Shown: positions 45,026-60,391 of the stretch, one piece after another
Layout: every line of letters starts with the position of its first letter
How positions within the stretch are numbered: position 1 is the stretch's first letter
Source of the DNA: Phycisphaeraceae bacterium
GTDB lineage: Bacteria; Planctomycetota; Phycisphaerae; Phycisphaerales; Phycisphaeraceae
Length of the DNA stretch: 64,000 nt
Assembly (NCBI GenBank): GCA_963674705.1
Contig: OY771506.1
Span: 1,824,001-1,888,000, forward strand
Reading direction: 5' to 3'
Position numbers and translations under genes: made by a program
Notes under the pieces: generated by a model
The model's input: the letters and a program-made list of their open reading frames with translations, nothing else
What the model was told of the DNA's origin: nothing
The model's database searches: none

Positions 45026-45071
45026 AAAGCGGGTGATGAGATTTGAACTCACGACATTCACGTTGGCAACG
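45026..45071. repeat. att site (duplicated 3' part of tRNA-Gly), 46 bp
   Basis: aaagcgggtgatgagatttgaactcacgacattcacgttggcaacg identical to 60318-60363. Confidence 0.95.
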
Positions 45072-45314
45072 CCTTTCGCTTCCCTAGCTTCCGCGACGTA
45101 ATTCATTTACTAACAACATAATACCGTGCGTTACCCGGTGCAACATCCGTTGCATATCCAACAATTGTTGCGCGCCCGTAACGCGCCGTTCCGATCCTGG
45201 GGGCTATCCGGGATATCTCCGCGCATATCAGTTAACGAGCACTATTGAGCACTAACGAGCGAATTCTGAATCCGCCATCTAGGAACAGAGATCGTGTTCG
45301 GGCATGATGCATGA

Positions 45315-45623
45315 ATGACCGAGCCCGACACAAATACCGACCAGCTTCTGTCACTGGCTGAGGCAGCACAGCTATGTCCGGGGACACCTTCCAGAACAAC
45401 ACTCTGGCGTTGGTGCACACGTGGCGTGCAAGACGGAAGGGTGATCCTTGAACATAGACGGTTCGCCGGGCGATTATTTACCTCTCAACGATGGCTCGAT
45501 GAGTTCGGTAAAGAATCCGCAAATCTGTATATCGAGAATACATCGCATCGAAGTCAACAGATATCACAGCACAAAGAACGGTCAGAGCGAGCAAGTGAAG
45601 AAGCTATCAGATTATGTATTTGA
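45315..45623 (+). CDS. DUF1580-like HTH (excisionase/AlpA-like)
   Basis: LLSLAEAA..CP..PSRTTLWRWCTRG...LE..RFAGRLFTS..WLDEF. Confidence 0.8.
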   Translation: MTEPDTNTDQLLSLAEAAQLCPGTPSRTTLWRWCTRGVQDGRVILEHRRFAGRLFTSQRWLDEFGKESANLYIENTSHRSQQISQHKERSERASEEAIRLCI

Positions 45624-45716
45624 TCGCAGTTGGTCCAATAATTGACAGTGGATCTGAACAATCAAATTCTTTGAATAAAATATAGATTGAAATGCCGCCC
45701 ATTGAAAGGAGATTGT

Positions 45717-45986
45717 ATGCACAATATGTACAAGAACGTTTATGAAATGGACACTCAGTATGCTCTTGAGTGCGTAGAATCCATATATCTAGCAATGTTA
45801 TTCAGAGTATCAATCAAAGGGATTGATCTGTGGTGTGGCCGCTATCGAATGCCATACGACATTGTTGATGGGAAGCGGATCCACAATATGGACGAAATTA
45901 AGTACTGGGCTTATGACAGGGGGAACTTACTGAGAGCAGCGTTGGGTACCCCACCAGGCGAGTTCTTCGCTTTTAATGACGACTAA
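45717..45986 (+). CDS. Small hypothetical protein, possible Xis-like HTH
   Basis: SD AAAGGAG; LAMLFRVSIKGIDLWC...MPYDIVDGKRIHNMDEIKYW resembles the MerR/Xis-type pattern. Confidence 0.55.
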   Translation: MHNMYKNVYEMDTQYALECVESIYLAMLFRVSIKGIDLWCGRYRMPYDIVDGKRIHNMDEIKYWAYDRGNLLRAALGTPPGEFFAFNDD

Positions 45987-46007
45987 TATCCAACCCGATT
46001 GAAACCA

Positions 46008-48029
46008 ATGAGTAGATTTCATAGATGGCCTGATCTTCCAGCCAAATTGGCCGAATTATTGAGTGCGCTTGATAATGTCACACCGTTCGGTGGCAACCGA
46101 TGGATGGCTAGTTCGCCGTTGCGTAGTGATTCTACGCCTAGCCTATCGATCAGCTTGTCTGAAGATGGTGACAGGATCTTACTTCATGACTTCGGTGCCG
46201 CATCTTCGAATGCCACCGAAGAGATTCTTGAATACCTAGGCATGAAGTTTGATGACCTCTTTATCAGATCGGACAAATCCGTGCGTCGTCATACAACTCC
46301 GCCAACCTCATATGACTCGAGCAGATCAATGTTGCCCAAAGCGGTACTGAAATACTACTTGGACTCGGTAAAATCGGGCCGACGGGGGAAACGCCATCTC
46401 TTTGCTTCGACGCTTGGCCTACCGGCAAAAGCCATTGGCACGTTTGAGTGGGGTTTCGATTCATACAGAAAGGCATTCACAATTCCCGAGCGCGATCACA
46501 CGGGCCAGATAATAGGTGTGCAGCGTCGCCTAATACAGGGTAGGAAGAAAGCAGTTAAAGGGTCAAAGCGAGGCTTAACTGGGCTTGAGACCTTAAGGTC
46601 TGACCGAAGTGGACGTCTACATGTTTGCGAAGGCTTCAGTGACGTAGTGGCTCTGTATTCTCTCGGATTCATGAATGTACTCGGAGTACCCAGTGCCGGG
46701 GTGGGGGGTGAATTGATTAGGTCAGTTATCCTTGATGGCCAATACTCAGATATCGTAATTGTGTCTGACCCTAAGCCGCAGGAGCGTGAGGCTGCACATA
46801 AACTTGGTAAATCAATATCTGATTTGATTCAATACAGAGTGATCATGCCTCCGGGTGGGGTGGACATGCGGGATTGGATTAACCAGAATAAGATCACCGC
46901 TAAAGATGTTGACTGTCTGATCAACAATACCCCATGCGCCATCTCGCGATTTCGCCTGTGGAGTTTGGAAGATGTCGAGCGCTTGCCTCCCAGGGAGCAT
47001 CTAGTCGAAGGGATTCTTGGTGTAGGGGAGTTTGGTGTTCTGTACGGCCCGCCCAAGTCCGGGAAGTCGCTCGTCGCTTTGGATATGTGTATGGCTGTAC
47101 AAGCGGGCCTGCCTTGGCGCTCCGGGCAGAAACGTGTCCGGCAAGGTCATGTGATTTATGTGGCCGCCGAGGGTAAAGCGGGCTATAAAGATAGAGTAAA
47201 AGTGTGTCGTCGTCGTTATAACCGTACACGAAGTCGATCTAAATCCGGGGTGGGTGACATTCGGTTCATCTTCGATCAGCCCGTCCTCAGCGGTGGAGAT
47301 GCAGTTGCCCTCGTGAACGCCATTAAGAATCAACGTTGCAATCCTGATTTGGTAGTAATAGACACACTGGCCCGTACAAATGGTGGTGACGAAAATAGTG
47401 CAGCCGACATGAGCGCGTACATTCGCGGCCTTGATGACCTGCGTAGAGAATTGAATTGTGCCGTACTAGTCCTACACCACCAACCACGCCACGATAATCG
47501 GATGCGAGGTTCGGTTGCTCTAGACGGGGCTTGTGATGTTGCCATAAGAACGACACGATCAGGTGATGTAATCACGCTTGAGTGTGAGTTCGCTAAAGAT
47601 GATCCACCATTCGACGCAATATACCTTCGTATGAAGCAAGTACCAGTCGATAAGGATCATTCCTCTATTCGAATTATCCGTGCGGGGCCACTAGAGGTTG
47701 TTGTAGCTAAAGATAAGAGAAATACCAAGGCTAATGCTTCTGTCACTAGGATAATGGAAGCCCTTTATCAACTATCATCAAAATGTAAGGACAGGTGGGT
47801 ACGTAGGGCGGCATGGTTGGACGCGATTGGCATGAACCAACACACATTCAACAACCATCTCAAGACTCTCCGTATTAGGGGGGAGATCATCGAACGTAGA
47901 GTTGGAAAGTACAAAGAATATCAACCAGTCCCAATCAATAACCAACAGATGTCAACAGTTGTGGCCGATGGTGATGTACAACTGTCAACTGTCACACCCC
48001 CTTTAGGGGGTGACAGTGGTAACAGTTGA
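46008..48029 (+). CDS. Primase-helicase (degenerate Zn-binding domain + TOPRIM + AAA_25/RepA-type helicase)
   Basis: CEGFSD TOPRIM; Walker A GPPKSGKS; YVAAEG; Walker B LVVIDT; DEN; LHH; RGS. Confidence 0.85.
   Translation: MSRFHRWPDLPAKLAELLSALDNVTPFGGNRWMASSPLRSDSTPSLSISLSEDGDRILLHDFGAASSNATEEILEYLGMKFDDLFIRSDKSVRRHTTPPTSYDSSRSMLPKAVLKYYLDSVKSGRRGKRHLFASTLGLPAKAIGTFEWGFDSYRKAFTIPERDHTGQIIGVQRRLIQGRKKAVKGSKRGLTGLETLRSDRSGRLHVCEGFSDVVALYSLGFMNVLGVPSAGVGGELIRSVILDGQYSDIVIVSDPKPQEREAAHKLGKSISDLIQYRVIMPPGGVDMRDWINQNKITAKDVDCLINNTPCAISRFRLWSLEDVERLPPREHLVEGILGVGEFGVLYGPPKSGKSLVALDMCMAVQAGLPWRSGQKRVRQGHVIYVAAEGKAGYKDRVKVCRRRYNRTRSRSKSGVGDIRFIFDQPVLSGGDAVALVNAIKNQRCNPDLVVIDTLARTNGGDENSAADMSAYIRGLDDLRRELNCAVLVLHHQPRHDNRMRGSVALDGACDVAIRTTRSGDVITLECEFAKDDPPFDAIYLRMKQVPVDKDHSSIRIIRAGPLEVVVAKDKRNTKANASVTRIMEALYQLSSKCKDRWVRRAAWLDAIGMNQHTFNNHLKTLRIRGEIIERRVGKYKEYQPVPINNQQMSTVVADGDVQLSTVTPPLGGDSGNS
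47979..48028. other. Putative replication origin palindrome at 3' end of primase-helicase
   Basis: caactgtcaactgtcacaccccc-ttta-gggggtgacagtggtaacagttg, plus an extra caacagttg copy at ~47953. Confidence 0.5.
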
Positions 48030-48123
48030 TATGGACATGAATGTTTGAACGAATCCAAATAATGACCTCAAGGGCTGACACCATTATCCGCGGATGCGAT
48101 GATACACAAAAACGAGGTGTATC

Positions 48124-48630
48124 ATGCCGAAACGAAACAGGAAATACAAGACCGATTCAAGCGGTTCTACCGGTGGGGCCAATAGACGGTCTAATGGGAC
48201 ATTCGGTCCGGGTAACAAAGCAAATCCCATGGGCAATCCGCAAATACGTCGGTTAGCTGAATATCAGGATGCGGTTCGCAATGCGGTATCTCCGAAGCGT
48301 TTGCACACAATACTAGTTCGGCTTACAAAGCTGGCCGAGGAAGGCGATGTGTTAGCGGCTAAGGTATTACTCGATCGTACACTTGGAAAGGTCAAGGCTG
48401 TTCCTGATATCGAAGCATTGGGCGCGGTAGAGATTCCAATGATCGAATGTGCTGCAGACGCCGTAAATGCCAGCAACGCCATCTTGACATCACTTAACGC
48501 CGGGAAGATATCAGCCGACGATGCCAATAGACTTTCAAATATTGTGGAGTTGGCGCGGCGCACCATCGAAACACATTCATTGGCTGAGCGTGTTGTTGCG
48601 CTCGAAAACGAACTGCTTTCGGGAGGGTAA
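48124..48630 (+). CDS. DUF5681/terminase-small-subunit-like protein
   Basis: SD GAGGTG; NGTFGPGNKANPMG; AEEGDVLAAKVLLDRTLGK; LAERVVALE. Confidence 0.55.
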   Translation: MPKRNRKYKTDSSGSTGGANRRSNGTFGPGNKANPMGNPQIRRLAEYQDAVRNAVSPKRLHTILVRLTKLAEEGDVLAAKVLLDRTLGKVKAVPDIEALGAVEIPMIECAADAVNASNAILTSLNAGKISADDANRLSNIVELARRTIETHSLAERVVALENELLSGG

Positions 48631-48734
48631 CTCAATGCCTGGATTCAGCAAGCTTAAAGGTGATCCGTGATCATGCAATGCCAAAATAGTACCCTAACTA
48701 GGCCGCGAGCAACATCTAATTATGGGGCACGATT

Positions 48735-48941
48735 ATGAGATCTTTACGCCGGCGTATTAGAGTTTTGGAGAGTAGAGGTTGGCATGGTGAAGCCTTAGTA
48801 AATGCCTATCGTGACTACCGTTTAAAAGGTGTTCTTCCATCTAACCCAAACCTTGCGAAGCACATTCGTGATATCGCGGATCGTATAGATGCAATCGTGA
48901 TTGTGAATGGTGAAGATATTTTTTGCGAACTTGACAAATAG
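48735..48941 (+). CDS. Small hypothetical protein
   Basis: MRSLRRRIRVLE start echoes the preceding gene's C-terminal coiled motif; GGGG SD-like. Confidence 0.45.
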   Translation: MRSLRRRIRVLESRGWHGEALVNAYRDYRLKGVLPSNPNLAKHIRDIADRIDAIVIVNGEDIFCELDK

Positions 48942-49020
48942 ATCCTTGCGCTTGGGGAAGGGTTGGCTTACATTGCTACACGTACCCAACCCAAACGCCC
49001 TAAGGGCAAGGAGACGCGAA

Positions 49021-49254
49021 ATGGCGATTGCAAAACGAAAAGGCGTGAAAGTAACAATTGAGAAAGGGTCGAATCTTAAAAAATCACTCCCGAAGAACGC
49101 TGACCTAACAGATGAGCAACGCAAGAAAATAATCGATGGGTTGATTGACGAGTTGCGTTCGGCACAGTTCCCCGGCAAGAAGAAACAACTCCGACGCTCA
49201 CTACGTGCCTTAGGACACAAGGGTGGCCTCAAGGCTCTCGAATCCAAAAAATAA
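49021..49254 (+). CDS. Small lysine-rich hypothetical protein (77 aa)
   Basis: SD AAGGAG before ATG 49021; followed by a terminator-like hairpin. Confidence 0.6.
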   Translation: MAIAKRKGVKVTIEKGSNLKKSLPKNADLTDEQRKKIIDGLIDELRSAQFPGKKKQLRRSLRALGHKGGLKALESKK

Positions 49255-49284
49255 ACATCTCGAATATAGTGTGAATCATTTCAG

Positions 49285-49313
49285 TGTCCCCGCATGTCGT
49301 CGGGGACATTTTT
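49285..49313 (+). terminator. Intrinsic terminator
   Basis: tgtcccc-gcatgtcgtc-ggggaca followed by ttttt. Confidence 0.6.
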
Positions 49314-49854
49314 AAGCGTTCTGAGGCGCCCTGAAGCGTCCCTAAGCGTCCAATTAATACAGATCGATTGATACGTCACGTTCATCACCCGGGACGTTAC
49401 GGGCGATTTCACGCGTCCGGACGATATCACATATCCCAATAGTCTTGTTTACATGATCAGGCCCATCAAGGATGCCATATAGTCCCGCTTAGTGACATAA
49501 GCAGGACAGTATGCATTTAGGGTGCAAACCCTGAGCCATAGCCTGTCTAGTTGCTGGTCTAATGCCAACATGGCATGACCCCCCCCGCCCCCCGCCATTT
49601 TGGCGCAACCAACTTGGCCCCAGTCACAATAGCTAGGAGCTAGTCATCGAGCTGGCTGAAATGAGTTTTGGTTAAGTAACTCGAGTGCCAACGTACTAAT
49701 CTTTTTCGAGATATGTTCTCTTGCGATGCTTCTCGGCTTCGACTATAGCTGCAAAGTCTTCATTAGGATTGTGACCCCATCTCATCGTGAGATAATGATA
49801 CTGTCTGGTTCTTCCGGAATAGTCCTGATCTGAGGCAACAGGTTCGAGCACAAG

Positions 49855-50814
49855 CTATGGTTCGATATCCTCATAAGGCCACTCTGGCATAGGCCAGTTC
49901 ATTTCTTCGGCCTCTTTTCGTATTGCCTCGATGGTTTCATCGGAGAGACCGTAGCTGTCCCGCACAGAGTTTTCTCCACGCTGACGCATTTGGTCACCCT
50001 TTTCGAAGATTACATCCAATGCTCGACCATGTTCATCTTCCGACATGGTCCGTTTTTTCTCACCCAGCTTTACCATCTCCCCGTGTTCCCATTTTGCACC
50101 CGCATACCCAACAAGTGCTAACTTTCGCCATATTGTGCGCCGCTGTTCATATGTCAGTCCGAAACGCTTCGTTTGCTTCTCGTTCACACGGCGATTATGG
50201 GCAGCGAGCCGTTTGTCGTAGATATTGATTATGGGACCGGGATTTCCCGGTCGTTTGGTCATGTCGGCAAACCATTCTGGTATTGCGGATTTCTGATGTT
50301 CGGCCGTTGAGAATAGACATACCGCTATAACCGTCGGTTCACTGTGGTATTTGAACTTGCGATATGTCCTAGCATTTTCATATGCCTTTTCCAACACCAA
50401 CCGAGCTTGATCCTCGGTCATCGGGTCATCCGATTGAATGTCCATCAAAACCATTGTCTTGCCATAATCTTCGGTGATTGTGGTGTCGAGTATTTGATAT
50501 GCCGGCAACGGCATAGATTCGCTCGTAGTTACTGGGGCTCTTGGCGGTTCTGTTGGGCTAGTCTGTTTTGTTTGAGGTTTTGTAGTACTGCGGGATGGGG
50601 CTGAGGTTCTAGTATTCGTTTCCAACTGAACAATATTGGCCCACACGTATACAACAACGACTAGTAGAATCAAAAGAACAACTGCGCTAGAACACGAACT
50701 TGTTCTCGTAGGTGGACATGGTTTCTTGCCATCGCAATTGGGACAACGGCGTGCATTGGGTGCAACAAGATTGCCACAGTACCGGCATGGTTTCGCTTTA
50801 ATCGATTTCGCCAT
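49855..50814 (-). CDS. Zinc-ribbon membrane-anchored hypothetical protein
   Basis: SD GGAGG; CRYC...CPNC, single TM helix, P/T-rich linker, soluble C-domain. Confidence 0.75.
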   Translation of the reverse strand: MAKSIKAKPCRYCGNLVAPNARRCPNCDGKKPCPPTRTSSCSSAVVLLILLVVVVYVWANIVQLETNTRTSAPSRSTTKPQTKQTSPTEPPRAPVTTSESMPLPAYQILDTTITEDYGKTMVLMDIQSDDPMTEDQARLVLEKAYENARTYRKFKYHSEPTVIAVCLFSTAEHQKSAIPEWFADMTKRPGNPGPIINIYDKRLAAHNRRVNEKQTKRFGLTYEQRRTIWRKLALVGYAGAKWEHGEMVKLGEKKRTMSEDEHGRALDVIFEKGDQMRQRGENSVRDSYGLSDETIEAIRKEAEEMNWPMPEWPYEDIEP

Positions 50815-50841
50815 ATGAACCTCCCAGAGATAGGGCGTTAA

Positions 50842-51023
50842 GATCAGGCGGCGTCCACAAAGAAAAGGGGGACGCCGATCCACAGTCGCCCGCAGGGCCT
50901 CCGCCAAGAGGCACACGAAACAACACATGGCCGACGCCCCCTTGCGGGGGCGCGGTGCCAGTGCTGCTTTCGTGAATCAAGGGCCTGGGGGCCCAGGTTG
51001 GCGGATTCCTGCGGTGCAGACTG
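50842..51023 (-). ncRNA. Candidate structured leader RNA, unassigned family
   Basis: Nested stems CCGCAGG/CCTGCGG, TCCGCCAA/TTGGCGGA, CACGAAAGCAGCAC/GTGTTGTTTCGTG, GCGCCCCC-GCAA-GGGGGCGT; G-U pairs and the GNRA loop work only on the minus strand. Confidence 0.55.
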
Positions 51024-51231
51024 ATACTCGCGCATCAACTCGGTTGTCTACGGGGTTAATGACCCCGCCATAGTTCGAACTATCTCCCCTCATGATCGTC
51101 CATACTAGCCTCATGTCAATCTGATCTTCGATATAGACAATAACCGACATTATATAGCAACTACATGCCAATATTGACTTTACGTACTCGGCTAGGTTTG
51201 GTAACTTGTCTTTAGTCTATGGGGATAGCAG

Positions 51232-52188
51232 ATGAGCAGTCGTATTCGAGCAATAGATTTATTCAGCGGCGCTGGTGGTAGCAGTTGGGGGGCACGATCA
51301 GCAGGCGTCGAAATATGTGCTTCGTTTGACCTGTGGGAATTGGCTGGCAAAGTGCATCAAGACAATTTTCCTGAGTCAAAGTTCTTTAATGAACGACTGG
51401 AAACAATCAGCGATTGGCGTATCCGACAACTGGGGCACATTGATCTAATCTTAGCTTCTCCCGAATGTACCAATCACAGCCCGGCTAAGGGCAACAAGCC
51501 GCGATGCGAAAAGAGCCGTGAAACGGCTTTCCAAGTCCTGAGATATGCACGCATATTGAAACCTCGTTGGATAGTCATAGAAAACGTTGTAAGTATGCGA
51601 AACTGGCATCGTTATAACGACCTTATCTCTGGCTTGGAGGATCTTGGTTATTACGTAAATGCTCAGGTACTGAATTCTGCCGATTTTGGCGTACCGCAAC
51701 GCAGGCGTCGTTTATTCCTGCTCTGCGATCGTGAATCACCATCCCCTACACTTGAACCACGTGTCCGAAATGAACGATCAGCCAAGCAAATCATAGACAT
51801 GAATGGCGGATACAATTATACTTCGCTTCATTCGCCCAAACGGGCCCGGGCAACATTGCAGCGTGCAGAACGTGCTTTTGAGTCTATCGGCAAGAAACAG
51901 CCATTTCTGATTGTGTATTATGGCTCAGATCATGCCGGGGGCTGGCAGGAATTAAGTCAGCCACTTCGTACCATCACTACGCTTGATCGTTTTGCATTTG
52001 TACGGCCACGCGGGCATGGACATGAGATGAGAATGTTGCAGGTTCCAGAGTTGAAGGCTGCAATGGGAATGTCAAAATCCCACACACTCAACCATGGTTC
52101 TCGTCGAGACCAAATCAAGATGATTGGTAATGCTGTTTGCCCGCCAGTTATGCGGAGAGCAGTCACATCGTTGATTAACAACAGATGA
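51232..52188 (+). CDS. dcm: DNA (cytosine-5) methyltransferase
   Basis: DLFSGAGG, ASPECTNHS, IENV, DFGVPQRRRRLF, IGNAVCP. Confidence 0.93.
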   Translation: MSSRIRAIDLFSGAGGSSWGARSAGVEICASFDLWELAGKVHQDNFPESKFFNERLETISDWRIRQLGHIDLILASPECTNHSPAKGNKPRCEKSRETAFQVLRYARILKPRWIVIENVVSMRNWHRYNDLISGLEDLGYYVNAQVLNSADFGVPQRRRRLFLLCDRESPSPTLEPRVRNERSAKQIIDMNGGYNYTSLHSPKRARATLQRAERAFESIGKKQPFLIVYYGSDHAGGWQELSQPLRTITTLDRFAFVRPRGHGHEMRMLQVPELKAAMGMSKSHTLNHGSRRDQIKMIGNAVCPPVMRRAVTSLINNR

Positions 52189-52195
52189 GCTATCC

Positions 52196-54316
52196 ATGAA
52201 TACACAAAATGAATTACCATCAAGCGGTCATGCGACAATGCGCCCTCGCGCACGATTGATTTCGCTCATCGGAGATGAACTGATAAGTGATGAGCCAGTA
52301 GCAGTAGTTGAACTTGTAAAGAACGCCTACGATGCAGATGCTACCAAGGTGAAAGTCTCTTTCGAAGGCGATAACCCACTCGATCCAGATACTTTAATCA
52401 TCGAAGACAATGGACATGGTATGGATCTGCCAGTCGTGTTATCTGGTTGGTTTGAACCCGGCACCATTCACAAGAAAGCTGGCCAACGAACACCAAATGG
52501 TAGGCCATATCAAGGTGCGAAAGGCATAGGTAGATTTGCCGCTGCTCGTCTCTCAGATTCCTTGTACATGGAAACGAAGCGTAAAGGGAAAATGGATGGT
52601 GTGACCGTTCTTCTTGATTGGGGGCTATTCAGTGACGACAGTTATCTTGACGAAGTATCAATCGTGTATGAAGTCGAAACACTGCCTCAACTTAAACACG
52701 GGACGATCCTCAGACTGGATAACCTGCGTAGTCGTCGGAGTTGGACTGAAAAAGACTTTGAGGAGTTACACAATCGATTATCACGTCTGATTTCTCCATT
52801 TCAGAATAGTTCCGGACAGGCCGAGGTGTCTGATTTTGAGATTGAACTCGATTTGCCTGGTTATCCAACACTGACTGGCAAGGTTGAACCCCACGAAATA
52901 ACAACAAAGCCTAAATATAAACTAAGCGGACGTGTTTCCGCGGAAGGTATTTTTACTGGACGGCTTGAGATTGATGGGAAACTGCATAAGAAATTTAGTG
53001 AAGAAGCCCTGGGGTCCAAAGGGGAAACCGTCATCTGTGGCTCTTTCGGTGTCGAAATACGCGCATGGGACAGAGATCTTCCCGGCCTAACTCCTTACAT
53101 GCTCGAATATAATCTGGGTGCACAGTCTATACGAGGTATTTTGAATAATTACTCCGGAGTTAGTATTTATCGAGATGGTTTTCGAGTTCATCCATACGGA
53201 GAGAAGGGTCTCGATTGGTTAAGCCTTGATACCCGTAGTCGCCAGAATCCAACTTTGCGTCTAGCAAATAACCAAATCATAGCTGCGTTGCAGATATCAC
53301 GCGATAATAATCCTGGTTTGCCCGATAGAGCAAATCGTGAAGGGCTTGTACACAACGATCAATATGCTGCCCTCAAAGAATGGTTCATTCGCATTCTAGC
53401 GCATCTTGAAGCAGAGCGATATGAAGTTCGACCGCGAGAAGAACCTAAACCCGAAGAGTTGTCTTCGTTGTTTGAACCGTTTGACATGGCTCTGGTGGTT
53501 AAAGAAACTAAAGACCAGCTCGGTGTTAAACATCCTGTCACAAAACTTGTTACACAAAAGGAAGGTGAAATTAGGGAAGGGGTCAAGCGCCTTCAAGAGC
53601 ACTACTCTCGTGTCCTACTGGCCGCTGGCTTGGGGCAATTAATTGATAGGGTAGTCCATGAGATAGGAGCTCCACTTGCCCATGTTAACCGTGCAGTTAA
53701 TGGGCTTGAAAAAGATCTCAAAGACATGCTGGGGGCGCATCGTGCCAACCAACTTAATGACCGCTTTATTAATATTCGGTCTTATTTAGAGCGAATTCAT
53801 GCTCATCGCGACTGGCTGCTCCCGCGAGCCGCGGGAAAGCGTGGGCGTACTGAAAGTTTTGTAGTACAAGATGAAATCCAAGGAAATCTCGATCTCTTTT
53901 CCAGCCTGATCGCCAAGCAAGGCATTGAAGTTGAGAGAAAGTGGCCGAAAGATCCACTGGTAGTACATATGTCACGTTCTAATCTTGGGCAGATCGTGGC
54001 TAATCTTCTCGATAACAGTATTTATTGGTTGACACATCATCATGGCGATGGGAAAGGCGGCAAGATTCAGATACGTTTATCACAGCTGAAACACGGGTTT
54101 CGTATTTTATTATCTGATGATGGGTCGGGAGTTCCCCCGGAAGACCGTGTCCGAATATTTGATCCTGAGTTTTCACGCAAACCCCATGGGATGGGCTTGG
54201 GGTTATTTATTGCTCGTCAAGTGATGGATATGTATGGCATGCTTCGCTATCGAGATGACGGCCCACTATCAGGCGCGTGTTTTGAAGCAACCTTTGAGCG
54301 TAAGGTAGGTCATTAG
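52196..54316 (+). CDS. MORC/MutL-type GHKL ATPase fused to a histidine kinase
   Basis: N-term ELVKNAYDA, EDNGHGM, GAKGIGRFA, YRDGFRVHPYG, DRANREG; C-term H-box HEIGAPL, NLLDNS, DDGSG, GMGLGL; no TM. Confidence 0.9.
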   Translation: MNTQNELPSSGHATMRPRARLISLIGDELISDEPVAVVELVKNAYDADATKVKVSFEGDNPLDPDTLIIEDNGHGMDLPVVLSGWFEPGTIHKKAGQRTPNGRPYQGAKGIGRFAAARLSDSLYMETKRKGKMDGVTVLLDWGLFSDDSYLDEVSIVYEVETLPQLKHGTILRLDNLRSRRSWTEKDFEELHNRLSRLISPFQNSSGQAEVSDFEIELDLPGYPTLTGKVEPHEITTKPKYKLSGRVSAEGIFTGRLEIDGKLHKKFSEEALGSKGETVICGSFGVEIRAWDRDLPGLTPYMLEYNLGAQSIRGILNNYSGVSIYRDGFRVHPYGEKGLDWLSLDTRSRQNPTLRLANNQIIAALQISRDNNPGLPDRANREGLVHNDQYAALKEWFIRILAHLEAERYEVRPREEPKPEELSSLFEPFDMALVVKETKDQLGVKHPVTKLVTQKEGEIREGVKRLQEHYSRVLLAAGLGQLIDRVVHEIGAPLAHVNRAVNGLEKDLKDMLGAHRANQLNDRFINIRSYLERIHAHRDWLLPRAAGKRGRTESFVVQDEIQGNLDLFSSLIAKQGIEVERKWPKDPLVVHMSRSNLGQIVANLLDNSIYWLTHHHGDGKGGKIQIRLSQLKHGFRILLSDDGSGVPPEDRVRIFDPEFSRKPHGMGLGLFIARQVMDMYGMLRYRDDGPLSGACFEATFERKVGH

Positions 54317-54326
54317 GGGGATATAC

Positions 54327-55457
54327 ATGGTTCTACAAGTCTTAATTGTCGATGATGATAAGGATTATCTGGCGGCACTAACGAGTGATCTTCAGGATTT
54401 CTTTAAGCAGAGTGGCACAAATGTCACAGCACATCCCTGTAGTAATTTTGATGAAGCATTAACACTCCTTAATGATCCATTACGTCGGTATGATCTTATT
54501 ATCTCTGATACATATGACGGATCACCTGCTAATGATGAAGCAAGAGTCATTCAGATGGTTCTACAGTATCGTGATACGGGACGCCGATTCTGCCCCATCA
54601 TTGTTTATAGCAGCGCGCCAAAACCCCCAGAACTACACACAACTGACTTTATAAAATGGGCTGACAAAAGTAAACCTAATGGAATTGAATTGGCGGTAGG
54701 GGATATCCTCCAAACTGGTGTGCCTCAGATTTCGCGAACTCTCCATGACGAACTTGATAAATTAGCAGGTTCGTTTCTATGGGAATTCTTGGAAGCCAAT
54801 TGGAAAAGGTTATCTGCAGACGGGGGGTTATCGTCAGACACACTCGAACGACTAATTAGGCGACGCGCGGCCATTCAAATCGGTGATATAACATCAGATG
54901 GCAAAGGTAATGTTCCGATTATGGAACGGGTGTCTTCTGAGTACTATATCTATCCAAGTATGATCAACCAAAACTACAACCTTGGTGATATACTCAGGAA
55001 TCGTGAGAATCAAGATGATTTTCGAGTAATTTTAACCCCTCATTGCCATTTGTTTAAACAACCAGGGAAAGAGCGACCTCGCGCCGATTTTGTTCTTACG
55101 CTAAAGACCGTTCCCGCTAAGGATATATTGGGTAATAAGATCACAGATACTGCAAATAAGCCTGAAGAAGCGGCACGCCACAAAAAACTCAAGGCATGGT
55201 CCAGATCACCTAGCCAGATCGATACAACGCCAGAAGGCCGTCACTGGTATCTTCCTGAATTTATGGATATTCCACATCTATACGGGGATTTTTTACAAGT
55301 TGAAAGCATACCAATTACGGCCATGAATAAATATGAAGTAATCGCCACACTTGTAGCTCCATACGCGGAAGCGATGCAGGCTTGTTTTGTAAGTTTTTAC
55401 GGATCTGTAGGCATTCCAGAGCTGAAGCCTGATAGTATCGTGAGCCTCCTTCGCTAA
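54327..55457 (+). CDS. Response-regulator receiver fused to an uncharacterised C-terminal effector domain
   Basis: VLIVDDD, DLIISD, PIIVYS, K; C-terminal GDIL..VILTPHCHL..WYLP..GDF..IATL.APY..F..FYGSVGIP; no HTH. Confidence 0.8.
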   Translation: MVLQVLIVDDDKDYLAALTSDLQDFFKQSGTNVTAHPCSNFDEALTLLNDPLRRYDLIISDTYDGSPANDEARVIQMVLQYRDTGRRFCPIIVYSSAPKPPELHTTDFIKWADKSKPNGIELAVGDILQTGVPQISRTLHDELDKLAGSFLWEFLEANWKRLSADGGLSSDTLERLIRRRAAIQIGDITSDGKGNVPIMERVSSEYYIYPSMINQNYNLGDILRNRENQDDFRVILTPHCHLFKQPGKERPRADFVLTLKTVPAKDILGNKITDTANKPEEAARHKKLKAWSRSPSQIDTTPEGRHWYLPEFMDIPHLYGDFLQVESIPITAMNKYEVIATLVAPYAEAMQACFVSFYGSVGIPELKPDSIVSLLR

Positions 55458-55948
55458 ACAATACGTGTTGATTTAGTCATGGACTTTACGCTGATAGGAA
55501 CATACCAAGCAGACATTCTTTTATCCCAACACCTCGCGCCCAAAAATTCAAGCCATGTAAACTCATGAATTGATTCTACTGTCATTTCTTTACCCAGACG
55601 GACTACTAGCAGGTATTCGAATAGTTGACGGTTGGGAGAATCAGGATCTGGATAGATTGTTCCAGTCTTTTTACCCTTCCAAATAGTCTTGATTGAGTAT
55701 CGATCTCCATTGCGCGACAAGGCATCGACATTCTTGGTGCCAGTTGGTGCGGCCTGTAGGTTGGGCAGGCCCGGCGTCTTCCTAAAATGTTCAATTGCAC
55801 CCTTTTCCCCAATATCTCCTACTGAGAAAGCAATGCCACGCTTACGCATTTCGACTTCTAATGCCGCCCTAAGAGCGATTAGTTCGTCATCTGAAAGAGT
55901 GGGCAGTTTGCCTTTGAACATGGGATGCTGGGTTGATGTGCTCTTCAT
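55454..55948 (-). CDS. Small PD-(D/E)xK restriction-endonuclease-like protein
   Basis: GDIGE...NVDA...RYSIKT spacing of the restriction-endonuclease fold. Confidence 0.6.
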   Translation of the reverse strand: MKSTSTQHPMFKGKLPTLSDDELIALRAALEVEMRKRGIAFSVGDIGEKGAIEHFRKTPGLPNLQAAPTGTKNVDALSRNGDRYSIKTIWKGKKTGTIYPDPDSPNRQLFEYLLVVRLGKEMTVESIHEFTWLEFLGARCWDKRMSAWYVPISVKSMTKSTRIV

Positions 55949-55977
55949 ATTACGAGATTATAGTCACTGGTGGTGCA

Positions 55978-56394
55978 ATGAGTGATGTATTAACACGTGA
56001 GCAACGTAGTTATTGTATGTCGCAGATTCATGGCAAAGACACGAAACCAGAGATGGTGGTACGTCGTGTATTGCATGGGATGGGATACAGATATCGATTA
56101 CACGCTCCGGATCTACCAGGCAAACCTGATATAGTATTTCGTAGTAAGCGGAAGATCGTATTTGTTCATGGGTGCTACTGGCATAGACACACCTGCAAAT
56201 ATGGGAAAGTGGAACCGAGATCAAGGCAAGCATTCTGGCTTGATAAGTTCGCGGCTACGATTGAGCGCGATAGGGCAGTAATCCACAACCTTAGACGTGA
56301 TGGTTGGAAGGTTCTGGTTGTGTGGGAGTGCCAGACGAAAATCCAGAAGTTGGATGAGCTACAGCGTCGATTAGATCGCTTTCTCGGTGAGTAG
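55978..56394 (+). CDS. vsr: Very short patch repair endonuclease
   Basis: DVLTREQRS..MS.I..KDTKPE, LPGKPDI, FVHGCYWH, GWKVLVVWEC. Confidence 0.95.
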   Translation: MSDVLTREQRSYCMSQIHGKDTKPEMVVRRVLHGMGYRYRLHAPDLPGKPDIVFRSKRKIVFVHGCYWHRHTCKYGKVEPRSRQAFWLDKFAATIERDRAVIHNLRRDGWKVLVVWECQTKIQKLDELQRRLDRFLGE

Positions 56395-56427
56395 CTGAAC
56401 TGAACCTAGTTGATGGAGAAGGTGGTT

Positions 56428-56625
56428 TCAGTGTAGAGGAATGCTGAATAGTGCCACTCCAGACTCTAAGGCATCATTATCAGCATATTCACACACAACC
56501 TCATCTGACATGGCGACCACTACTCCATCGGTTCGTCGAAATACAACAAGCCATACGTCACCACCGCTCTGCCAGACGTCACCGCCCAATACATCTGCAA
56601 CTGCTTGTGCTTGATCCTCATCCAT
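56428..56625 (-). CDS. Small acidic hypothetical protein (65 aa)
   Basis: AAAGG SD-like; AQAVADVLGGDVWQSGGDVWLV. Confidence 0.55.
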   Translation of the reverse strand: MDEDQAQAVADVLGGDVWQSGGDVWLVVFRRTDGVVVAMSDEVVCEYADNDALESGVALFSIPLH

Positions 56626-56734
56626 ATCAAGGGCCTTTCACTTAATACGGAAGACTATACAGAATGTAATTGTGGTAATCAATGGAATGCAATATAACCT
56701 TTAGATGCGGCGACTGTGGACTTATCGTAGAGTT

Positions 56735-57343
56735 ATGAACACGAAACGCCGTTATCCAATTGAGGTGCTTACCCCCCAAGAATCATCGACCTTGATAAGC
56801 GCAGTCCGAGGTCACGGAGCATCTGCCATACGAAATCGTGCCCTGATCACGACCTTATACCGGTCTGGGCTGCGGATCAGTGAAGCATTGGACCTTGAGC
56901 CCAAGGATCTGGACGCCCAGCAGGGTTCGATTCGTGTCTGCCGCGGCAAGGGTGGAAAGACTCGCGTTGTGGGAGTTGATCCGGGAGCGGTCGCGATAAT
57001 AGAACGCTGGCTACAATGTCGTCATGAATACGGCATCACTGGCTCGGCGCCTTTGTTTTGCACCTTGTGTGGTGACACGCTATCAGCGTCCTACGTGCGT
57101 AAGATGATCAAGCGATATGCTAGTAAGGCGGGCATCGTCAAGCGTGTACACCCACACGGGCTGCGCCACACGCACGCGGCGGAATTGTGTGCCGAAGGCG
57201 TTCCGATCAATGTCATCAGCAAGCAGCTCGGACACAGCAATATCTCGACCACTAGTCAATACATCGATCACATTGCCCCAAGGCAGGTAATTGAGGCCAT
57301 GCAACAGCGTGCTTGGGTTTGTTTCTCTCAAGAGAAAATCTAA
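56735..57343 (+). CDS. Tyrosine recombinase, catalytic-domain-only (FimB/resolvase-like)
   Basis: RNRALI..LYRSGLRISE, GKGGKTR, HPHGLRH, LGHSN..TT..Y. Confidence 0.9.
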   Translation: MNTKRRYPIEVLTPQESSTLISAVRGHGASAIRNRALITTLYRSGLRISEALDLEPKDLDAQQGSIRVCRGKGGKTRVVGVDPGAVAIIERWLQCRHEYGITGSAPLFCTLCGDTLSASYVRKMIKRYASKAGIVKRVHPHGLRHTHAAELCAEGVPINVISKQLGHSNISTTSQYIDHIAPRQVIEAMQQRAWVCFSQEKI

Positions 57344-57357
57344 GAACACACAGATTT

Positions 57358-58254
57358 TCACTCACCATCTCCCTTGTTGTGCTTGATAAAGTCAATTCGC
57401 CCACCGGTTTCGGTAGGGGTCCAACAACAATCGCGCCCAACGCCAAGCCAACCAATGTCAAGACGATTTGTGGCATGTGGATTATGGCAAATAAGAATAT
57501 CTGTACCAAGCGATTCCGGGTGATTGTATGGGTCGGCATATGCGAATATGACGGCACTGATACCGCTATGCCGCTCTTCAAGAAATAACCTTGAGCTAAT
57601 CCTCGCCCCATAGGCCTTTACCATGTCACGCTGCTCTTGATAATCTTCCTTTACTACCTCCAAAGTTTCTCTATCAAGCGTAACCTGCGGCCACCCTCCC
57701 CCATACAGCACCTGAGCAATGCGTGGAATGTTGAGTTCAGTAAATTTGTTTGGAATGAAACCTGAATTAATGGCAATTATACATACTGAGTCTGTGGAAA
57801 CCCAGCCATTGGACCAGTAGTTTTCATACTTGCGATATTTCGTTTCAAATGCTGAAGTGTATCTCAGCTTGACTTCCTCATGGGGCACATTGTGGACCTT
57901 TCTATCATTTTTATAATCAGGCACGCTATCAGGGCCGCTACCCATCGTTGGTGCTATGGACTCGATCCACATATGTCCCCCCTCATGTTTAATACAGAAG
58001 TCAGGTCCAGCTTGTCGTGGCCGCGCCTGTTGTGGAATGACAGGAATACCCTGCTGAACCAAAACGGCGCCTAGATACATTTCTGCATACCGCTGTGCGT
58101 GATGTTCATGGTAATTCTTCAGGAAATCACGCTCTGCGTAAGGCTCATATAGCTGCCATAAGTATTCCACGTGCTGGCGATCACCTTTGCGGGTGTACAG
58201 ATCTGAAATCCGCTCATCAGAAAGCAAGGGCATGTTACAACTCCAATAAGCCAC
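57358..58254 (-). CDS. Hypothetical protein, PD-(D/E)xK-like
   Basis: YAEMYLG...GPDF......WIESIAP; HNPHA. Confidence 0.6.
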   Translation of the reverse strand: MAYWSCNMPLLSDERISDLYTRKGDRQHVEYLWQLYEPYAERDFLKNYHEHHAQRYAEMYLGAVLVQQGIPVIPQQARPRQAGPDFCIKHEGGHMWIESIAPTMGSGPDSVPDYKNDRKVHNVPHEEVKLRYTSAFETKYRKYENYWSNGWVSTDSVCIIAINSGFIPNKFTELNIPRIAQVLYGGGWPQVTLDRETLEVVKEDYQEQRDMVKAYGARISSRLFLEERHSGISAVIFAYADPYNHPESLGTDILICHNPHATNRLDIGWLGVGRDCCWTPTETGGRIDFIKHNKGDGE

Positions 58255-58320
58255 ATTACATTGGGATACTGCTAAGTGTAATTACTAAAAAGTTCATGTC
58301 GATTGAGCTGGGTACATATA

Positions 58321-58860
58321 TTAATTGTCTTGAGGAAAGAATAATGTTGGGTCCGCATCTTGGTCATTATTTGGATTGATCGATATGACTTCATCGAGAT
58401 CAAAATAAAACACACGCTCTGATACAATCCGATGCTTAATCTTGAAGTTCTTCAGCATCTTCTTAAGCGTACGGACATCACAGTAGAACCAGTTTTTAGC
58501 GGCATGTCTGATGCTCACAGGGCGAGTAGATCTCTCTGGACAGGTAGACGCTCGATTCATATGGGCCACCTGGATACACCATTGCCCAAGGCTTTTTGCG
58601 GATTCGACACACTCTGAGCAAGAGAATCCTATGGGCATAGGCGGGGCTGTAATCGGATCACTTCCGAAGAACATTCGGTATATCTTGTGGGCCTCAATGA
58701 AGAGGTCTGCGCATTCCTTTGCTGCTTGGCGACGAATGCTTGCCTTGTCATTGTGGAGCCTTTCTAGGATGTGGGCCAACTCTGTCGCCATGAGTCTTGG
58801 CCGATCTCTTTTTCTTTGTATCAACAACCTGAAACCTTCTACGGTGAGCCCCTTAGGCAT
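58321..58860 (-). CDS. Integrase-coupled hypothetical protein with C-terminal HTH-like segment
   Basis: ATG overlaps the integrase stop (TAATG); PVSIRHAAKNWFYCDVRTLKKML..ERVFYFDLDE. Confidence 0.6.
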   Translation of the reverse strand: MPKGLTVEGFRLLIQRKRDRPRLMATELAHILERLHNDKASIRRQAAKECADLFIEAHKIYRMFFGSDPITAPPMPIGFSCSECVESAKSLGQWCIQVAHMNRASTCPERSTRPVSIRHAAKNWFYCDVRTLKKMLKNFKIKHRIVSERVFYFDLDEVISINPNNDQDADPTLFFPQDN

Positions 58861-60137
58861 TATCCATTCCTTTCTGCAAGTTCTATCGCTTGGTTTAGGT
58901 TCGTCTGGGCGTAAATCTGGGTGGTTTCTATCTTGCTGTGTCCAAGTAACACCGAAGCGGCTTCGACGCCATGACGCTGGCGTATGTCTGTGGCGAATGA
59001 GTGACGAAGCTGGTTCGGGTGCCAATGCTGAGGGGGCTTCCATCGGCTTAGTTCTTTTCGTTGGTCAGGTGTCAACTCCTTTCTTGGAATCTGGTTGAGC
59101 GTAGGGTGCGGGAAGACCGTGCGGATAGCTCGACGTATGGCCTGGGCATAGGACACTGTTGTGTACTGGCCATTGGGCTTTCGTCGCGGTTTCAATTTGG
59201 ATCGGTCTTGTTGTGACGGTTGGACTTTACTCTTGCGGCGCCGCCGTAGTTGTTTCTTACGTTCGACCTCTGCTTCGTGAGGGCTGAACAGGCATGCGTC
59301 TACATCACGACCAATTATGAATGGCTCAATGATCTCTTTGGCCTTGGGACCTAGGGGGATGAAGCGTTTCTTTCCACGATGTGCGTTCTTGTGATCCTTC
59401 GGATGATATATCCACACGGATCGGCTGCGGTCGATATCGATAGCACGCATTACAACGACTTCACCCGGACGCATGCCTGTCAGTCGTTGCAGCTCGATCA
59501 TAGCCCAGACTTGGCGGGACACATGACTACGGATCGCATCCACGTGCTCCTCGGGAACTGGTTTGATCGGTTCGGATTCAGGTGCCGAAGTGCGGCCCCG
59601 CTGAAGATGATCGATGTCCTCGATATCCGCCCAGACATGGGGTGGCACATACTTGTGCTTCTTACCCCAGCGAAACACCCTTAGTAGGCGATCCATGTTT
59701 TGGTTGATGTATCTGCGGGACCACGGCTTCCCTGTCCGGGCATGTCTTTGACGCACCAATGCTTGTTGGGTCACTTCAAAGCGTGACAACGTGAACTCAC
59801 CGACAGGTGTATGACCGTACAACTTTCGCAGAACACGTAATGCGGGTTTGAAGTTCGCAGGCGTTCGATAGCGCTCGCTCGATAGCGCATCTTGCATGAA
59901 CGCAACCGCAAGTTCAGTGATCGTGATTGTGTCTGATGGATCAACCCGGATGTGTTGTCGATCATTCACCAACCATTCGGCTATCAGGCGATCGTATTCG
60001 GATTTGGAACGCGGATCGTCCCAATGCCCCAAATACATTCGCCTGCCGTTTAGAACGGTATATGCACGATCAGGGCGATTTTTATGTCGCTGTCGTCGAA
60101 AACTTGGGATGCGGGTCTGTGTGTTTCGGTCAGTCAA
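58860..60137 (-). CDS. int: Tyrosine integrase of the island
   Basis: TGMRPGE, HKN.HRGK, WHPNQLRHS, LLGHS..TTQIYA; probable TTG start after GGAG (ORF open to 60200). Confidence 0.93.
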   Translation of the reverse strand: MTDRNTQTRIPSFRRQRHKNRPDRAYTVLNGRRMYLGHWDDPRSKSEYDRLIAEWLVNDRQHIRVDPSDTITITELAVAFMQDALSSERYRTPANFKPALRVLRKLYGHTPVGEFTLSRFEVTQQALVRQRHARTGKPWSRRYINQNMDRLLRVFRWGKKHKYVPPHVWADIEDIDHLQRGRTSAPESEPIKPVPEEHVDAIRSHVSRQVWAMIELQRLTGMRPGEVVVMRAIDIDRSRSVWIYHPKDHKNAHRGKKRFIPLGPKAKEIIEPFIIGRDVDACLFSPHEAEVERKKQLRRRRKSKVQPSQQDRSKLKPRRKPNGQYTTVSYAQAIRRAIRTVFPHPTLNQIPRKELTPDQRKELSRWKPPQHWHPNQLRHSFATDIRQRHGVEAASVLLGHSKIETTQIYAQTNLNQAIELAERNG

Positions 60138-60317
60138 GGCGGCGCTCCAGGCCGACCAAACGTATCCATGGATACGTTCAGCGGGTCTTGTCGCGGCCAC
60201 CCGGGCTAACCGGATGCATCTGAGGTGATCGTCACACCGTCGAGAAGTGGCTCACTAAGTGATTGTCATTCCACCCTTTAACTCTTTGGCAGTGGGCTTC
60301 TGCACTTCATGTCAAAC

Positions 60318-60363
60318 AAAGCGGGTGATGAGATTTGAACTCACGACATTCACGTTGGCAACG
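60318..60363. repeat. att site within tRNA-Gly, 46 bp
   Basis: Identical to 45026-45071. Confidence 0.95.
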
Positions 60364-60391
60364 TGACGCTCTACCACTGAGCTACACCCGC
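60320..60391 (-). tRNA. tRNA-Gly(GCC)
   Basis: GCGGGTG TAGCTCAGTGGTAGAGC G TCACG TTGCCAA CGTGA ATGTC GTGAG TTCAAAT CTCAT CACCCGC T cloverleaf; CCA not encoded. Confidence 0.97.

Follow-up and report, generated by a model that had tools for sequence, protein, structure and literature searches.

A methylase-linked ATPase-kinase and receiver cassette on a planctomycete island, with a predicted MazF-type toxin fold in the receiver tail

We analysed a five-gene cassette in a 64,000-nucleotide stretch of DNA from a Phycisphaeraceae bacterium (GenBank assembly GCA_963674705.1, contig OY771506.1, positions 1,824,001 to 1,888,000 of the forward strand). The whole of this stretch is referred to as the window, and positions are given in its own numbering. 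The cassette (51232–56394) encodes, in order, a C5 cytosine methyltransferase, a soluble GHKL ATPase fused to a histidine kinase, a receiver protein, a small antisense open reading frame (ORF) and a Vsr endonuclease; all five ORFs are intact. Structural modelling predicts a MazF-type toxin fold for the receiver's C-terminal domain, and the effector is most likely this domain and not the putative nuclease encoded by the small ORF. An initial annotation of the window had proposed a phosphorelay-gated restriction-modification (RM) or abortive-infection system. Our results retain a phosphorelay-competent, methylase-linked candidate but place the effector in the receiver tail and make the nuclease, found in 8 of 28 related loci, an accessory.

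The methylase, kinase and receiver genes are packed as first described, with gaps of 7 bp (methylase-kinase) and 10 bp (kinase-receiver), and are followed by the antisense gene, whose stop codon overlaps that of the receiver gene by 4 bp, and by vsr. A promoter and terminator scan gave counts at chance level (8 against 10.0 expected and 8 against 5.2 expected).

The ATPase-kinase (52196–54316, + strand) is a soluble protein of 706 residues that joins an N-terminal paraMORC-like GHKL ATPase (HATPase_c_3, residues 35–143) to a complete histidine kinase (H488; HATPase_c, residues 595–701). Residues 25–218 match the BbrUII/HgiDII ATPase-restriction-enzyme model (E 5.4e-20), and the closest named relatives of the ATPase module are ATPase-fused type II restriction enzymes. 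GHKL motifs I–III are present, and ATPase residues E39, N43, D71, G73 and G75 are invariant in 47 of 47 kinase sequences. The same holds for the kinase residues H488-E489 (in the H-box HEIGAP), N603/N607, D641/G643 and G665/G667/G669. The protein has no transmembrane helix (maximum 19-residue hydropathy 1.11), so that its description as a soluble GHKL ATPase fused to an intact histidine kinase is borne out. A kinase search of viral contigs yielded 13 pattern matches, none of which was confirmed.

The receiver protein (54327–55457, + strand; 376 residues) has no Pfam match but contains a REC fold. The REC domain (residues 1–130; 54327–54716, + strand) was identified by a fold match (Z 15.0, root-mean-square deviation [rmsd] 2.9, 128 aligned residues) and carries the phospho-acceptor D61. 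D61, S95 and K114 are invariant in all 120 homologues, and D10 is conserved in 119 of them. A helical linker (approximately residues 130–186) connects the REC domain to the output domain (residues 186–376; 54882–55457, + strand). In agreement with the annotated absence of a DNA-binding domain, neither a helix-turn-helix of the winged type (wHTH) nor another DNA-binding fold is among the top structure matches of the receiver, and comparison of the receiver profile with PDB sequences gave weak REC matches only.

Tail residues 186–376 were folded alone (model predicted local distance difference test score, pLDDT, 95.9) and compared by VIA-align with 48,161 PDB representatives. The top 12 chains, which are all those with Z of at least 8 (Z 8.2–11.9), are exclusively MazF, PemK, Kid, CcdB and CptN toxins. 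The best match has a Z of 11.9 and an rmsd of 2.6 over 103 aligned residues at 7% identity, with the fold spanning residues ~215–362. Rows 13, 14 and 16 are the type III toxins ToxN/AbiQ, and the best unrelated chain has a Z of 4.7. Foldseek searches of the PDB and of viral model libraries ranked the same toxin family first, with E values of at least 3.4e-3; VIA-align and both Foldseek searches rest on one single tail model. On this model the tail is predicted to have a MazF-type toxin fold, in common with MazF, PemK, Kid and CcdB and with the type III toxins ToxN, AbiQ and CptN. It differs from MazF-type toxins in its low identity to them (6–14%), its lack of a profile match (no Pfam match at E ≤ 0.5, PF02452 included), its extra insertions, its fusion to a receiver and the lack of an antitoxin gene. 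Conserved features of the domain are the motif TPxC[H/D], R305, D321 and G362, the most deeply conserved residues being P210, P238, C240, R305, D321, P345 and G362.

A profile of the tail matches 975 cluster representatives; among the 150 matches listed, most are receiver-sized proteins with the match in their C-terminal part. Standalone homologues of 167–211 residues also exist and align with the tail by hhalign (probability 96.9, E 1.4e-10) and in 5 of 5 cases tested by hidden Markov model (HMM; E 5e-14 to 4e-10). The standalone homologue lies downstream of a TIGR04255-like gene in seven of nine loci, often with a small low-complexity ORF between the two (two of the TIGR04255 calls were over the NCBIfam cut-off, four were made by tblastn, one of them weak, and one by inspection). 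TIGR04255 may be a SecB-like chaperone, which searches of Atlas, the PDB and the literature did not confirm; no mention of TIGR04255 was found in the literature searched. By analogy, the three-gene units look like undescribed toxin-antitoxin-chaperone systems, and the occurrence of standalone tail homologues in such toxin-antitoxin-like layouts supports a toxin reading of the tail. Units in which a TIGR04255 protein accompanies a small ORF, acidic or of low complexity, and a standalone MazF-fold homologue were seen in L121:5431-7055, L122:4912-6617, L123, L130 and L132–L134. The small ORF of L121 carries repeated DYS motifs.

Related loci were fetched through the receiver alignment, giving 84 loci (18 genomic and 66 metagenomic), of which 64 are distinct after near-duplicate removal. 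The loci were chosen by receiver similarity and many are related, so the counts do not represent independent events. Kinase linkage was counted in the 55 loci with at least 300 bp of flank, and other neighbours in the 28 loci whose flanks reach at least 3.5 kb upstream and at least 1.5 kb downstream. In 54 of the 55 loci the kinase adjoins the receiver on its upstream side, the exception (L069) being fragmented; chance falls far short of explaining this linkage. Of the 28 long-flank loci, 23 have a detected C5 methylase (that of L073 is a fragment; L034, below the threshold, has one by PADLOC), 20 a methylase of the same subfamily as ours, 19 vsr and 8 the small nuclease. Opposite-strand shadow ORFs aside, no other gene family occurs in more than 5 of the 84 loci, which leaves most loci without a candidate effector besides the receiver tail.

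Many loci consist of methylase, kinase, receiver and vsr and lack a separate restriction enzyme. In loci that lack the usual methylase or supplement it, the kinase-receiver pair stands beside DISARM drmA/drmB (L010, L054), Mza/AIPR genes (L021, L034, L073, L074), a Type I specificity subunit (L042) or Type II restriction endonucleases (L007, L008). In L054 and L055 the gene of an AspBHI-type methyl-directed enzyme, not related to the small nuclease, separates receiver and methylase. More distant relatives (22–25% identity) form kinase-receiver pairs with dcm nearby in four of four plasmid regions (Acaryochloris, Hymenobacter, Bacillus and Campylobacter). From the locus counts and the plasmid neighbourhoods, the core of the cassette is the kinase-receiver pair; the methylase and Vsr are its usual partners and the nuclease is accessory. 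Kinase and receiver homologues are common on conjugative Campylobacter plasmids (L127, NZ_CP092021.1, and 40 further records), with dcm in the one region read. A three-gene unit (~640, 250 and 240 residues; weak PDC-M33A match) adjoins the receiver in L014, L018, L041 and L083. In a phylum search the full receiver profile matched 175 of 401 genomes, nearly all through the generic REC domain, and full-length receiver matches occurred in only 2 of the 400 other genomes.

The methylase (51232–52188, + strand; 318 residues) belongs to a DISARM DrmMII-like subfamily (PF00145, E 1.5e-41; PADLOC DrmMII PDLC02654, E 6.5e-112). All 34 aligned sequences keep C79, E117-N118-V119, R158 and R160, and the strong conservation of the target-recognition region across these homologues suggests that they share one common target motif. 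With DISARM class II the cassette shares DrmMII as the best PADLOC model of its methylase, and two related loci have drmA or drmA/drmB; the island that carries the cassette, however, lacks drmA/B/C/E, the DrmMII-like methylase being its only such component in a PADLOC scan of 8 island proteins. The Vsr very-short-patch repair endonuclease (55978–56394, + strand; PF03852, E 2.9e-31; TIGR00632 over its cut-off) is best started at the ATG at 55978, as TIGR00632 aligns from residue 1, 29 bp from the divergent start of the small ORF. The genome has a second vsr, 59% identical, which adjoins a C5 methylase-like region elsewhere, at a site that also looks mobile (G000:C1:2117172-2119300). Genome word avoidance was found for CAGCTG (0.20), GAGCTC (0.27) and CTAG (0.52); because of the second vsr, these words are not attributable to the cassette methylase as its target.

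The small antisense gene (55454–55948, − strand) encodes a putative methyl-directed PD-(D/E)xK-type nuclease of 164 residues (PADLOC mREase_II, E 1.6e-51; DUF6998 below cut-off). The annotated PD-(D/E)xK assignment holds in part. The PADLOC methyl-directed restriction endonuclease models, on which the nuclease call rests, match well, but the motif (E48, D75 and S85-I-K87) is an SxK variant and not the canonical (D/E)xK, and the protein has no PDB sequence match. BisI-family enzymes use QxK, according to the accessible part of the source (PMC11347163); compared with small PD-QxK enzymes of this kind (NhoI/Eco15I), the ORF has the mREase_II match but SxK and no PDB match. By its model matches it resembles methyl-directed enzymes and not methylation-blocked ones. 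In four of four plasmid regions read, homologues adjoin dcm and/or vsr, and neither a kinase nor a receiver is annotated. The family has 2311 matches and keeps the company of dcm and vsr (L085–L088); one member, the 315-residue protein P0375, also has a Vsr domain, suggesting a fusion. It is possible that the family acts at methylated or T:G sites. As a core effector the small nuclease was rejected because of its presence in only 8 of the 28 loci.

The general layout has been described before. A computational study of 644 regions reported HEF_HK (PF19191)/Response_reg_2 (PF19192) two-component-like elements and proposed an RM link (Bellieny-Rabelo et al., 2021; PMC8011034); its accessible text says that Response_reg_2 receivers carry no other known domains, names no output domain and reports no experiment. 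As far as that text goes, these elements share with the cassette a soluble HATPase_c_3, H-box and HATPase_c kinase adjoining a receiver without a recognised output domain, a C5 methylase upstream and vsr downstream. They differ in receiver length (600 residues, against 376 here) and in that an output of predicted MazF fold is assigned here and none is named there. The PF19191 cut-off was reached by none of the 47 kinases, three of which matched at E of at least 0.057, and the H-box here reads HEIG. None of 120 receivers matched PF19192 at E ≤ 0.5, with a model that had no positive control; searches of genomes for PF19192 (0 of 1 and 0 of 251) were uninformative, their controls being silent, and Atlas gave a weak lead (score 0.79). 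Judged by sequence, the cassette appears to work like the HEF_HK/Response_reg_2 class but fails both of its domain tests.

Ambrosia (AbrRABCD) is a validated phage-blocking system in which the receiver Asp is needed for defence (van den Berg et al., bioRxiv 10.1101/2025.09.30.679545; statements here refer to the accessible part of that preprint). Both systems have a methylase, a HATPase sensor kinase, a receiver with a phospho-acceptor Asp and a putative methyl-directed nuclease. Ambrosia combines an XRE regulator (AbrR), an N6-adenine methylase (AbrA), a REC-wHTH protein and an HNH nuclease, and neither MazF nor PemK nor Vsr is mentioned in the accessible text; the cassette has a C5 methylase, Vsr, a REC protein with a predicted MazF-fold tail and an optional PD-(D/E)xK-type nuclease, and no XRE gene. 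No ORF of at least 70 residues lies between 50928 and 51232, and no XRE family recurs among ORFs of at least 90 residues in the related loci. A Pfam scan found no HNH match for the small nuclease, whose motif is E-D-SxK. By the tests run, the cassette is a member neither of PF19191/PF19192 nor of Ambrosia, the latter being set apart by its described gene content.

In prokaryotic MORC/paraMORC systems, mobile RM-like operons contain a GHKL ATPase next to cytosine methylases and Vsr (Iyer et al., 2008; PMC2292703, accessible part). The cassette differs from these in having a kinase and no helicase or fused nuclease, and the word receiver is absent from that text. A literature search, with subscription journals and bioRxiv supplements outside its range, found no receiver-MazF fusion with a MORC kinase. 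The claim to novelty is thus narrowed: the methylase/ATPase-kinase/receiver/Vsr layout was in print in 2021, and related architecture appears in the Ambrosia preprint. What is new is the assignment, from a structural model, of a toxin fold to the receiver tail.

The cassette is borne on an island, as the initial annotation had indicated; the island measures 15.3 kb and lies at tRNA-Gly. The left boundary (45026–45071, no strand) is an attachment (att) site, a 46-bp, 100% direct repeat of the tRNA-Gly 3' end; the right boundary (60318–60391, − strand) lies within tRNA-Gly(GCC), with the repeat copy at 60318–60363. These are the only two copies of the repeat in the whole genome. A tyrosine integrase (58860–60200, − strand; PF00589) adjoins the tRNA. 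The GC content is 0.458 for the cassette, 0.480 for the island and 0.566 for the genome, which holds one full-length copy each of the kinase, receiver and small nuclease genes. A contig assembled from a public run covers 45042–60347 with zero differences, possibly from the source sample and so not independent. The island excision joint was not seen in contigs of public sequencing runs, and no RNA run was listed among these.

We give about an even chance to the reading that the cassette is a portable phosphorelay-gated toxin backing up methylation-based defence. The methylase would put a 5-methylcytosine self mark on host DNA, and Vsr would repair deamination damage. The GHKL ATPase module would clamp DNA or protein and in this way detect infection, the cue being DNA that is foreign or unmodified, or interference with the methylation/restriction machinery. 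The fused kinase would then autophosphorylate H488 and hand the phosphate to D61, releasing or dimerising the MazF-fold domain, which would halt growth of the infected cell, most plausibly by RNA cutting; the small antisense nuclease would be an optional extra. This reading would account for the lack of a restriction enzyme in most loci and for the joining of one pair to unrelated methylation systems. A phosphorelay-competent defence module is supported by the conserved catalytic residues, the 54/55 linkage and the requirement for the receiver Asp in Ambrosia. A role in defence is supported by the pair's adjoining DISARM, Mza, Type I and Type II RM genes, and by the island location and low GC.

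Several results weigh against a MazF-type toxin as the output. No tail match was obtained by Foldseek at E ≤ 0.001 in the PDB or viral libraries; hhalign of the tail against a 4-sequence PemK profile gave probabilities of 0.25 and 0.36; and none of four PemK proteins matched the tail HMM. R233 is present in 115 of 120 close homologues but in only 15 of 87 of the wide set. R233 and T261 fall within one position of the MazF catalytic register in close homologues only, and this is a sequence register, not a residue-level structural alignment; the MazF Arg-Pro/Thr catalytic signature is, on these alignments, not clearly kept family-wide. No MazF counterpart could be mapped for the invariant C240, R305 and D321. 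CcdB shares the MazF-type fold but is not an RNase. Finally, Ambrosia showed no host toxicity during defence, and its proposed action is via transcription (bioRxiv 10.1101/2025.09.30.679545).

An alternative is an Ambrosia-like mark-and-cut system, in which the relay would regulate defence and not carry it out: on infection it would license the methylase and a methyl-directed nuclease, the latter destroying freshly marked phage DNA, and the MazF-fold tail would serve in binding or regulation. In its favour, the small ORF matches methyl-directed models, all eight nuclease-bearing loci with a long upstream flank carry the same methylase subfamily, and the unrelated AspBHI-type enzyme is present in L054 and L055. 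In Ambrosia, moreover, methylation gives the phage no protection and the nuclease is of a methyl-directed type, as far as the preprint is accessible. We nevertheless regard this explanation as unlikely: the small nuclease is absent from 20 of the 28 long-flank loci, its plasmid homologues accompany dcm and/or vsr in regions where neither kinase nor receiver is annotated, and no wHTH or other DNA-binding fold ranks among the top structure matches of the receiver.

Location on an integrative island, with relatives on plasmids including 41 Campylobacter records, would also suit an addiction or maintenance module. The relay would keep the toxin off while island methylation lasts and kill cells that lose the island or plasmid, with phage defence incidental. 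MazF, Kid and CcdB folds are classic post-segregational toxins. This account is rather improbable, as the association with DISARM, Mza and RM genes and the Ambrosia precedent point to phage defence and a 700-residue double-ATPase sensor is elaborate for such a role. Least probable of all is direct restriction without cell death, in which the ATPase-kinase would clamp unmethylated DNA and the phosphorylated tail would be a novel Cys/Asp/Arg-dependent enzyme or adaptor directed at invading nucleic acid, the missing restriction subunit: the ATPase-fused type II relatives, the many loci without a separate restriction enzyme and an invariant C240 with no role in MazF chemistry favour it, but the pair is found, too, next to other methylases and to complete RM systems, and so is not tied to one target sequence, and standalone tail homologues occur in toxin-antitoxin-like units without methylases.

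The island backbone is phage-satellite-like, with the integrase, a DUF1580 excisionase-like gene (45315–45623), a primase/AAA_25 gene (45999–48029) and a DUF5681 gene (48124–48630, below cut-off). A zinc-ribbon protein with one transmembrane helix (49855–50928, − strand) is divergent from the methylase and was not found in related loci. Directly after vsr, 56705–57343 (+ strand) encodes a second, Xer-like tyrosine recombinase of 212 residues with the catalytic domain only. The 298-residue product of 57358–58254 (− strand) matches PADLOC PD-T7-5 (E 1.4e-12) and PD-T7-1 (E 3.4e-11) and is likely a second, independent defence nuclease of the island; it was rejected as part of the cassette, being found in 0 of 84 related loci and unrelated to the small nuclease. 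Other island ORFs in the Pfam scan are primase, integrase or without a match.

The phosphorelay-gated toxin may have wider reach. The tail domain is detectable in a 635-residue receiver whose kinase falls just short of the HEF_HK cut-off (23.6 versus 24.1 bits). Since 48 of 73 homologues of this receiver match the tail profile at E ≤ 1e-3 (0 of 73 when shuffled), the tail is a likely candidate for the missing output of larger receivers; two others, L141 and L142, gave no match. More tentatively, and with less confidence than in the cassette itself, we suggest a widespread toxin-kinase class in which a MORC-type-ATPase phosphorelay gates a MazF-fold toxin as an abortive-infection guard for Type I, Type II, DISARM and Mza systems, the toxin family also standing alone in the three-gene units.

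Modules that pair an ATPase-kinase with a receiver next to methylases were described in 2021, and no output had been assigned to them. The toxin-fold assignment to the receiver tail makes the mechanism directly testable with a few point mutants. If true, the toxin would be restrained by His-Asp phosphorylation state instead of by an antitoxin, and the family would constitute a new MazF-fold family with a conserved Cys motif, missed by current Pfam, NCBIfam and PADLOC models. The kinase-receiver pair would then give restriction-like systems in many phyla a portable back-up defence, in keeping with the 975 cluster representatives that match the tail.

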